From the IMG/VR virus record IMGVR_UViG_2630968933_000007, positions 53,025-117,024 of that record: a stretch of DNA of 64,000 bases; one strand, 5' to 3'. Shown piece after piece: positions 6,001-9,000 of the stretch (the stretch's first letter is position 1; every line of letters begins with the position of its first letter). This DNA comes from a virus (lineage: Duplodnaviria > Heunggongvirae > Uroviricota > Caudoviricetes). The position numbers are program-made.

Positions 6001-9000
6001 TGTAACTATGCCAAATTGCAGGCATAAAAAAGCCGCAAAGCTATCGGGTGCGGAGACCGCTTATTTGTTCAGTGCGATCAGTATGCGATAGCTCTGGCGG
6101 ATTTGTCAAATCGTGCAGTAACATCCTTTTCTTCCTTGCCATTTCTCAATGATGACAAAGGGTGGATTCGGATTGGTATTGGGACAAAAGTGAGACACAC
6201 AAAGCTTTGCATCGGCTTACAAAGCTTTGCATGTTTTTCAATGTTGGGACGTGTGAGCGCAGAAATGACGGGCTATCTAATTGATTTTAAACGATACGTA
6301 ACCAACTTTAAAATCTTTGCACGCCAGTTCGCAGGTTTTACAGCCAGTACAGCGGCTGGAATCGATAAAAAATCCATATTGTGTGGTCATGGGCTACTCC
6401 TTAAACCTTTTCGATCTGGACAAGATTGCTGTGCGACGGGTTTCCCTTTGCCAGCGGTGAAGGGCGGTGAGAGGTCAGAATATTGATACTGCCGCCGTGA
6501 TCGACCCGGTCACCAAACATATCCGCTTTAAGCCACGCACCTTGCCCGATGGCGGTAACGCCAGGCAGAATACGCGGAGTCACTTTTGCGGCAATCAGCA
6601 TTTCTCCATTATTGTTAAATACCCGCACGGTATCGCCATGACGGATACCGCGTGCCTGAGCATCAATGGGGTTGATCCACACCTCTTGTGGGCAGGCCTG
6701 CTGTAACACATCAATATTGCCGTAGCTGGAGTGGGTACGCGCTTTGTAATGGAAGCCCGTTAACTGCAGTGGATAGGTTTTCCGCAGGGGATCGTCCCAG
6801 CCATCAAAACCTGGGGTATACGCAGGAAGGGGATGAATAATTTCATCTTTTTTCAATTCCCAGGTATCTGCAATCTTCGCCAGTCGTTCAGAATAAATTT
6901 CGATTTTCCCCGAAGGTGTTTTCAACGGGTTTGCCTGTGGATCTTCACGGAATGCGCGGAAAGCGACGTAGTGTTCTTCCGGGCATTTTTTCTTAAAGAT
7001 CCCGGTCGTTTTCATCTCCTCGTAGTCGGGCATCTCAGGGTTACGTTCCTTCGTTTTCGCATGGAGATATTTGATCCATTCATGCTGACTGCGACCTTCA
7101 GTAAAGGTTTGATAAACGTCTGGTCCTAAGCGTTTGGCGACTTCACTCAGCATCCAGTAGATGGGTTTGCGTTCAAATTTTGCTGAGGTTGCGGGTTGGG
7201 CGAGGATCACATAGCCCATATTCCCTGCAGATTCATGAGAGATAAGGTCTTCTTGCTCTGTTGGCATCAGGTCGGGCAACAGGATATCGCAATACTTAGC
7301 CGAGGCCGTCATGAAGTGGTCAATGCCAACAATCATCTCGCACTTGCTGTCATCCTGAAGCACCTCATGGGTGTGATTGATGTCGCCATGTTGATTGATC
7401 AATGTGTTACTGGCGTAGCACCATAAAAACTTGATGGGGACATCCAGTTTTTCTTTTCCACGAACACCATCACGGGTCGCGGTCATTTCCGTACCATGGT
7501 CGATGGCATCTGTCCATGTAAAGACGGAAATCTGCGTTTTAACAGGATTCTCGAGCATCGGGAACCATTCTACCCCCAGATCCCAGCTACCTTCGCGTAC
7601 GCCTGAGTTGCCGCCGTTTATGCCGACGTTGCCGGTGAGAACGGAAAGCATGGCAATAGCGCGGGATGTTTGCTCGCCGTTGGAATGTCGTTGTGGCCCC
7701 CAACCCTGACAAATATAAGCAGGTTTTGCTGAACCGATCTCTCGTGCCAACTGGATAATTTTTTCTGCCGGGATGCTGGTGATTTTTGCTGCCCATTCCG
7801 GCGTTTTAGCTATGCCGTCAGGCCCTTCGCCCAGAATATAGGCTTTATAATGCGCGTTACGTGGTGCGTTGGCGGGCAGCGTTTTTTCATCGTAACCAAC
7901 ACAATATTTGTCGAGAAATGGCTGATCGACCATGTTTTCAGTAATCAGTACCCAGGCAATCGCACAGGCCAGTGCGCCATCGGTGCCAGGGCGAATGGGC
8001 AGCCATTCATCTTCACGCCCGGCAGCAGTGTCGTTATAACGTGGATCGATGACGATCATGCGTGCGTTTGAACGTTCGCGGGCTTGCTCGACGTAGTAAG
8101 TGACACCACCGCCGCTCATCCGCGTTTCTGCCGGGTTATTTCCGAACATAACGACCAGTTTCGTATTGGCGATATCATCCGGGCTGTTGCCATCATTGGC
8201 ACCGAACATATAACTCATTGCGGCACTGATCTGTGCGGTACTGTAGCTGCCATAGCGACTGAGAAAACCACCGCAAGAGTTCATCAGACGGTACGGGACG
8301 TTTGAGTTGGTGATGTTTCCGCCATCTACGCCTGTTCCGTACAGGACATGTACAGCCTCATTGCCGTAATCTTTCAGGATCCGCCGAAGATTATCACTGA
8401 TGGTATCCAGGGCTTCGTCCCAACTTATCCGTTCAAATTTACCTTCACCGCGCTTGCCGACGCGCTTCATGGGATATTTCAACCTATCAGGATGATTCAT
8501 CCGTCGGCGGATAGAGCGCCCGCGTAAACACGCTCGAACCTGATGATTACCGTAGACGTCGTCACCTGTCGTATCAGACTCCACCCAGTACACGGTGTCA
8601 TCTTTCACATGCAAACGTAACAGACAGCGGCTCCCGCAGTTAACGGTGCAGGAACTCCAGACCGCTTTCTCTTCTACCGGAGCCTCTGCCGCCCGGACCA
8701 TTTGGGAAAATGGCAGAGTGAAAGCACTGCTTGCCAGCGCAAGACTGCCAAGTGCGGAGGTTTTCATCAGACTTCTACGGCTGATTTCAGCCTTCATGAG
8801 CGCCTCTGTGGTATGGATTTTCATCATTACTCACTTATTGCTTTTCAAACAAAATGTCATGCCAGAATTTATGGTTGTCGTGGGTTATATTTTTTCGATC
8901 TCGACCAGATTAGTGTGCTGCGGGTTTCCCTTCGCCAGTGGTGAAGGGCGCAGAGTGGTTAGCGTATTCACACAGCCGCCATGGTCGATTTTATCGCCAG

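Follow-up and report, generated by a model that had tools for sequence, protein, structure and literature searches.

The 64,000-nucleotide stretch analysed here (the window; positions 53,025 to 117,024 of the Caudoviricetes record IMGVR_UViG_2630968933_000007 in IMG/VR) contains a pair of identical 14-bp direct repeats near the right end of a short-tailed lambdoid prophage, which occupies the window from position 1 to about 6305 and is inserted in the gene ynfG. The two repeats are most likely P22-type excisionase (Xis) sites within attR, and the interval 6199-6238 would then form a Xis array. The setting in which we infer Xis to be the ligand comprises the position in attR, homology to the attP of phage P22, a fixed spacing, phased T-tracts, the assignment of the integrase (Int) arm-type sites, and the cognate int and xis genes of sister genomes.

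The two copies of ACAAAGCTTTGCAT were located on the plus strand at 6199-6212 and 6219-6232, 20 bp apart from start to start and separated by a 6-bp spacer. An earlier note on this DNA had described two identical sites 20 bp apart, each with a perfect palindrome, and this description was confirmed; the palindrome CAAAGCTTTG occupies positions 2-11 of each 14-mer and is therefore slightly off-centre. Exact direct repeats of at least 14 bp within 40 bp occur at just two places in the window, against a mean of 0.01 in first-order Markov resamples of the window, so the 14-bp duplication is not a product of chance. The 10-bp palindromes alone are unremarkable, with 59 in the window and approximately 62 expected. 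The search of the rest of the element that the earlier note had proposed gave no further copy of the 14-mer, allowing up to two mismatches, either in the window or in the 60-kb homologous prophage of NZ_CP027452. Searches of the window and the complete sister prophage with the 14-mer, the palindrome and the 8-mer CTTTGCAT gave no match outside attP.

The whole element in NZ_CP027452 is a 60-kb short-tailed Stx1a lambdoid prophage. At one end the C-terminal part of ynfG is followed by int, xis and then exo-bet-gam onward, and at the other a giant LPD38 gene is followed by a leftward block ending in ant, after which 440 bp without coding sequence lead to the N-terminal stub of ynfG. In the window this stub, which is the host or B' side, lies at 6313-6390 on the minus strand. 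Forty-eight complete E. coli genomes have the same junction, and the genome closest to the window, that of E. coli G1/2, has 99.8% identity over 1-6400 and the same int-xis end. The int and xis genes lie outside the window and were read from sister prophages that share the junction, where they lie at attL. The Int of the ynfG phage is a 387-amino-acid protein that matches Pfam Phage_integrase with an E-value of 1.5e-45, while Xis contains 123 amino acids, matches Pfam HTH_17 and is encoded by a gene overlapping the start of int. The gene ynfG is the published integration site of the Stx phages POCJ13 and 75/02 and of the RM10410 prophage (PMC5447701, PMC10562709), and the genomes of these phages match the arm at 100% over 6126-6305 of the window.

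The heptamer CTTTAAA is the sole sequence common to attL (8277-8283 of L002), attR (6306-6312, plus strand) and attB, and in the rebuilt attP it sits within the imperfect inverted repeat AACCAACTTTAAAGTTGTTG. An attB assembled by joining the left flank of attL to the core and the right flank of attR was 100% identical to the intact ynfG of other E. coli genomes, and matches covering at least 80% of it were found in 5328 genomes. The crossover fixed in this way by attL, attR and the rebuilt attB places the repeats in the phage P arm, at attR. The crossover is 74 bp beyond the end of the second copy, in agreement with the earlier figure of about 75 bp to the ynfG disruption point; both repeats fall within 74-113 bp of the core, with their centres at -103.5 and -83.5 bp relative to the core centre. 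The locus has the properties of an attachment-site arm of a heterobivalent tyrosine integrase of the lambda/P22 type, namely a defined crossover, cognate int and xis by the other arm, and arm-type sites in both arms that are distinct from the core. The pair had previously been read as either a dimeric repressor operator or recombinase binding sites. The second of these was nearly right, in that the repeats lie inside an att arm of a tyrosine-integrase module, with excisionase rather than integrase as the likely ligand.

The phage-side P arm of attR is an int-specific module that spans 6125-6305 on the plus strand, its outer boundary being approximate. Stx phages with other integrases cease to be similar at 6110-6124, whereas the ynfG-integrating phages continue to the crossover, and the start of the integrase-specific module was therefore placed at 6110-6124. 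The first elements in the arm are the tandem Int arm-type sites P1 and P2 (6180-6197, plus strand), with TGGGACA at 6180-6186 and TGAGACA at 6191-6197, 11 bp apart. A 47-bp spacer between the second and third arm-type sites (6198-6244) holds both repeats. Copy 1 contains a T-tract at 6206-6208 and is the putative Xis protomer site 1, the CGGCTT between the copies (6213-6218, plus strand) contains a degenerate second T-tract at 6216-6218 and is the putative site 2, and copy 2 contains a T-tract at 6226-6228 and is the putative protomer site 3. A fourth phased T-tract is formed by GTTTTT at 6233-6238 on the plus strand (T's at 6234-6238); this is the putative site 4 and also the T-run after a plus-strand hairpin considered below. 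The third arm-type site of the P arm, P3, reads TGGGAC (6245-6250) and is part of the conserved block TGGGACGTGTGAGCGCAG (6245-6262, plus strand), which is identical in the window, P22 and the cryptic prophage DLP12. A site resembling that of integration host factor (IHF) was assigned on the minus strand at 6274-6291 by consensus only, the bottom strand reading AATCAATTAGATA against the consensus WATCAANNNNTTR with an A/T-rich stretch before it. P22 and DLP12 have TTGACTTAAAA in this place, and P22 is reported to have one IHF site per arm.

The TGGGACA-like motifs occur five times in the rebuilt attP, all in one orientation. The P arm contains a tandem pair 11 bp apart at -129 to -112 and a single copy at -64, and the P' arm a tandem pair, TGGGACAAATTTGGGACA, at +90 to +107 inside the last codons of int. 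Four IMG/VR contigs with a thrW-type core (L049, L087, L066 and L076) appeared to carry an intact attP and proved to be hybrid P/P' junctions at thrW, in which a P22-type P arm is combined with int and a P' arm of a different type; they are perhaps tandem prophages. In two of these hybrids, L049 and L087, the N-terminal domain of Int is different and the P' tandem pair is replaced at the same position by TGTGCCGTATTTGTGCCA, with the motif TGTGCC. Since the P' pair covaries with the N-terminal, arm-binding domain of Int, the 7-mers can be assigned as arm-type sites, and on this sequence evidence the arm-type role falls to TGGGACA and not to the repeats.

That the repeats themselves could be the arm-type sites recognised by the integrase N-terminal domain is suggested by their position in an att arm and by the distribution of the 8-mer CTTTGCAT, whose three occurrences in the 60-kb prophage are all in attP, the third having the same orientation and lying at +65 in the P' arm. 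However, this P' copy (L002 8345-8352) lies within the final codons of int and has no counterpart in P22, and the sequence of the repeats is not conserved among arms that have the same type of Int. The TGGGACA motif fits the role far better, with its five copies in both arms, its tandem spacing of 11 bp, its invariance in 34 arms, and the change of the P' pair to TGTGCC exactly where the Int N-terminal domain differs. It is consequently very improbable that the repeats are bound by the integrase as arm-type sites. A sequence related to the 8-mer, TCTTTGCA, was also noticed on the host side of attR at 6314-6321; this sequence and the P' copy may be due to chance.

Comparison with other phages showed that the P arm of P22 attP aligns without gaps to 6174-6291 of the window, with 82-85% identity over 118 bp in many P22-like phages. 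The tandem TGGGACA sites, the two CTTTGCAT repeats 20 bp apart, the third TGGGAC and the IHF-like site are all present, in identical order and with identical spacing. The P22 arm reads TGGGACAAAAATGGGACAT-ACAAATCTTTGCAT-CGGTTT-GCAAGGCTTTGCAT-GTCTTTCGAAGA-TGGGACGTGTGAGCGCAG, and its repeats are in register with those of the window. The Int proteins of the ynfG phage and P22 are 71% identical, and the Xis proteins are approximately 72% identical overall and, as estimated from the alignment, approximately 80% over the first 80 residues. Despite this conservation there are differences between the two arms. The repeats of P22 are imperfect palindromes (ACAAATCTTTGCAT and GCAAGGCTTTGCAT), while those of the window are identical and perfect. 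The cores are unrelated, P22 targeting the thrW tRNA gene and the present element a CTTTAAA inside the protein-coding ynfG, and the gene next to the arm is gtrA in P22 and ant here. The attR of DLP12, which lies between ompT and envY in E. coli K-12, has 77% identity over 6181-6291 and the same arm-type sites and spacing, but its repeats are degenerate (ATAAGGCCTCGCAA and GCAAGGCTTTACAT) and its target is a tRNA-Arg gene. The comparison with the ends of homologous elements that had been proposed as a check thus found the sites present in the homologues and outside coding sequence.

To extend this comparison, viral contigs were scanned for the third arm-site block, giving more than 120 loci with 59 distinct P arms, from which a gapless alignment of 34 diverse P arms was made. 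The search-key block (P3) is invariant in the collected loci by construction. Elsewhere, invariance is limited to the G, A and C of P1 and P2 and to eight positions of the spacer, which has a constant length between the arm-type sites in all 34 arms. The eight are A26 (A6201), T32 (T6207), T42 (6217), T51 and T52 (T6226 and T6227), T59, T61 and T62, and column 60 is T in at least 90% of the arms. The invariant T's correspond to four T-tracts approximately 10 bp apart (6206-6208, 6216-6218, 6226-6228 and 6234-6238). In the relatives of P22 the commonest form is CTTTGCA-n3-GTTTGCA-n3-CTTTGCA-n-TTTT; where the window has CGGCTT the relatives read CTTTGCAnnnGTTTGCAnnnCTTTGCA, GTTTGCA being present in most.

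The palindrome is not retained in this family. Its left half varies freely (GCAAAG, GCAGAG, GCACAG or GCATAG) while the right half, CTTTGCA, is kept, and the spacers of some lineages have no dyad symmetry at all, CTACCACTTTTTATGGGTTTCTGTCTCTTTCC being one example. When arms were paired with the Xis helix-turn-helix encoded on their own contig or in an intact attP locus, the helix-turn-helix was nearly invariant and the spacers differed widely, although the pairs were few. Since the left half varies and spacers without a dyad are paired with nearly identical Xis helix-turn-helix sequences, the palindrome is, as judged from the alignment, a by-product of TTTGCA-type units repeated every 10 bp. 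On the same basis the array consists of four helically phased units, of which the 14-mers are the first and third.

These properties are typical of the arrays bound by recombination directionality factors, whose sites are direct repeats one helical turn apart that are bound cooperatively and cause bending of att DNA; P22 Xis is known to bend att DNA (PMC7498355). The direct repeats of the spacer are phased by approximately one helical turn (T columns 32, 42, 51/52 and 59-62), and the 14-mer, with up to two mismatches, occurs in the P arm alone, which becomes the phage side of attR. The arrays of 186 Apl, P2 Cox and mycobacteriophage L5 gp36 likewise consist of several direct repeats one helical turn apart that are bound cooperatively and bend att DNA (PMC7498355). 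They differ from the present array in the proteins and the site sequences, and Apl and Cox also regulate transcription at other sites, whereas the window 14-mer has no further copies in the sister prophage.

The geometry of the array is close to that of phage lambda, in which the Xis sites are called X1, X1.5 and X2 and the neighbouring arm-type site P2. As read from the lambda sequence, X1 (TATGTTGTGTTTT) and X2 (TATGTAGTCTGTT) are 13-bp direct repeats 20 bp apart, centred at approximately -93 and -73. Both systems have T-rich direct repeats of 13-14 bp at a distance of 20 bp, with a weaker site between them, directly on the core-proximal side of P2; in both they are restricted to the P arm, and the bending for excision that they serve in lambda is also their proposed role here. 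The lambda repeats have no sequence similarity to those of the window, and lambda Xis belongs to a protein family other than that of the HTH_17 P22-type Xis. The sites in the window lie one helical turn further from the core, a third arm-type site stands between the array and the IHF-like site, and there are four phased tracts in place of the three Xis sites and one Fis site of lambda. Annotated Xis-site features are absent from the P22 (BK000583) and lambda (NC_001416) records. Mattis et al. are said to have mapped the P22 Xis site to this inter-arm-site interval in 2008. In lambda three Xis protomers, together with an A-tract, bend the P arm beside P2 so that Int bridges P2 and the core (PMC4880445).

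The assignment of 6199-6238 as a Xis array rests on the phased direct repeats, which are typical of directionality-factor arrays, and on this similarity to lambda. After integration through the P22-type tyrosine integrase the phage P arm lies at attR, at approximately 6125-6305, and the spacer would present four protomer sites one helical turn apart, each with a T-tract, to Xis. Cooperatively bound Xis and the phased T-tracts would together bend the P arm; the bend would let Int span the arm and core sites when attL and attR are paired for excision, and would work against re-integration. Several observations weigh against this interpretation. Nearly identical Xis helix-turn-helix sequences are associated with very different spacers (L042 or L021 compared with L086 or L027), so that recognition by Xis would have to be degenerate or dependent on DNA shape, or else intrinsic bending could be the main property of the spacer. 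In addition, seven of the nine specified positions of the IHF consensus are matched by each 14-mer, the two copies are able to pair into a stable hairpin, and the 8-mer CTTTGCAT recurs once in the P' arm.

The first of these points lead to the alternative that the repeats are sites for a host architectural protein, either IHF or Fis, or simply curved DNA that requires no dedicated phage protein. The bottom strand of the 14-mer, ATGCAAAGCTTTG, agrees with WATCAANNNNTTR at those seven of nine positions. The only signal that is family-wide is the set of T-tracts phased at 10 bp, which alone curve DNA, and spacer sequences differ among phages whose Xis helix-turn-helix is almost the same. The Xis region of lambda also accommodates an A-tract and Fis (PMC4880445). 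Against a host factor, many homologous arms retain the TTT but not the CAA half of the IHF-like match, and better IHF-like sites are found symmetrically beside the core at approximately -30 (6274-6291 of the window) and approximately +50 (+45 to +57 in attP). The dispensability of the P22 IHF sites for recombination (PMC4111918 Table 1) was also counted against it, and an exact 14-bp duplication is more than curvature alone needs. A purely host-factor or curvature role is therefore judged distinctly unlikely, although curvature of the T-tracts probably contributes in any case.

The ability of the two copies to pair with each other, which follows from the palindrome in each, raises a further alternative, that the repeats act as an RNA hairpin serving as a terminator or as a sib-like retroregulator. 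The hairpin would have a 17-bp stem on the int-sense (minus) strand and would form in transcripts reading from int across attP; it could also insulate host genes against phage transcription, and it could coexist with binding of Xis. The minus strand folds at -22.7 kcal/mol (z = -5.4) and the plus strand at -16.9 kcal/mol (z = -2.1), the latter as a stem with a 10-nt loop followed by GUUUUUC. P22 folds in a similar way (z = -4.4 and -3.1), a pattern scan found the minus strand to be terminator-like, and the GenBank record of phage L has a predicted 'terminator' on the plus strand across the homologous 49 bp. The plus strand has z below -2 in 12 of 17 representative arms, and one double change, from C-G to U-A at columns 25/54, was seen in a DLP12-like lineage.

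The fold has no support from covariation, however. Over the 34 arms 72.1% of the cells were paired compared with 69.6% in shuffles, and three pairs were changed on both sides against a shuffle mean of 3.9, so there is no excess of compensatory changes. Two substitutions in P22 break minus-strand pairs and are uncompensated; five of the 17 arm families have no significant fold, while the others fold in different registers. A purine-rich arm-site half beside a T-rich half also inflates the shuffle z-scores. The minus-strand stem is followed by a poor U-run (CUCACUUUUG), and the sole Rfam match at the repeats is to a microRNA model at chance level, with 26 bits against a gathering score of 50. 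We consider the hairpin unlikely as an explanation of the repeats. In the lineage of P22 and the ynfG phages it is less probable again that the array doubles as a sib-like retroregulator or terminator hairpin inside the P arm, in int-sense transcripts crossing attP. Were this so, the hairpin would be cut off from int on integration, as lambda sib is in the prophage, and binding of Xis to the DNA could compete with it.

The remaining alternative is the operator pair of the earlier note, here taken as bound by a dimeric repressor of the leftward ant operon. Its basis is the occurrence of perfect 10-bp palindromes two helical turns apart upstream of ant, and the first copy starts 338 bp upstream of the second ant paralog, whose ATG is at 5861 (minus strand), in line with the 340 bp originally estimated. 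However, the dyad symmetry is not conserved, many homologous arms being without a palindrome, and there is no other copy in the 60-kb prophage, immunity region included. The sites travel with the int-xis-att module and are found beside gtrA in P22, ompT/envY in DLP12 and ant here. The region upstream of ant (5950-6110) is a separate module that is shared with Stx phages using other integrases, and has its own promoter-like site (6109 to 6080, minus strand) and a structured leader that matches the Rfam family sRNA-Xcc1 at 5902-5990. The operator was accordingly rejected as extremely improbable, and the excisionase array is retained as the most likely reading of the pair.

The ynfG-integrating Stx-type phages of the POCJ13 and 75/02 group use a P22-type Int/Xis module, whose arms have been conserved while the core was retargeted to a protein-coding gene. 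The attR site map should be useful for the annotation of prophage ends, the prediction of excision ability and the design of excision and integration assays. A small general point from the 34 arms is that the inter-arm-site spacer keeps just its length and the four phased T-tracts. The feature itself is of an ordinary, well-known kind and reveals no new mechanism.

Some further features of the ant module were observed. The promoter-like site reads TTGACA-18-CATACT and lies between the att arm and the ant leader, with a short GC stem followed by a T-run approximately 30 bp downstream on the minus strand (approximately 6030-6055); the region 6030-6109 is common to Stx phages with other integrases. 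Two matches to Rfam RF02221 (sRNA-Xcc1) were obtained on the minus strand, at 5368-5453 and 5902-5990, with 73.4 and 69.1 bits against a gathering score of 53. Each is located just upstream of the start of an AntA-family paralog (ATG at 5330 and 5861), and the matches look like a conserved structured 5' leader of the ant genes and not a free-standing small RNA. The second paralog (5577-5861, minus strand, 94 amino acids) consists of the AntA N-terminal domain only, while the first (ATG 5330, minus strand, approximately 210 amino acids) has both AntA and P22_AR_C domains; the listed 263-amino-acid open reading frame from GTG 5489 probably takes in the leader, which is non-coding.

On the host side of the junction the ynfG stub is followed by ynfF at 6401-8827, with ynfE next. 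Within the right end of the prophage a gene with a Panacea domain (2033-2557, plus strand) precedes an IbrB-like/ParB-like gene (2646-3290, minus strand) and an IbrA-like PAPS-reductase gene (3275-4501, minus strand). The Panacea and Ibr-like genes (2033-4501) are flanked by the giant LPD38 gene and the ant genes, in the place where the Stx1a prophage of NZ_CP027452 has DUF551, Ea22-like and TraR genes. Elsewhere in the window an exact 25-bp tandem duplication, GAAATATACCGAAGAGGCGCAGAAG, is present in two copies at 49951-50000 (plus strand) inside the open reading frame 48767-50134, which is overlapped by the next open reading frame, 50109-51353. This duplication looks like a frameshifting event in a single longer gene, possibly a candidate for the tape-measure gene.

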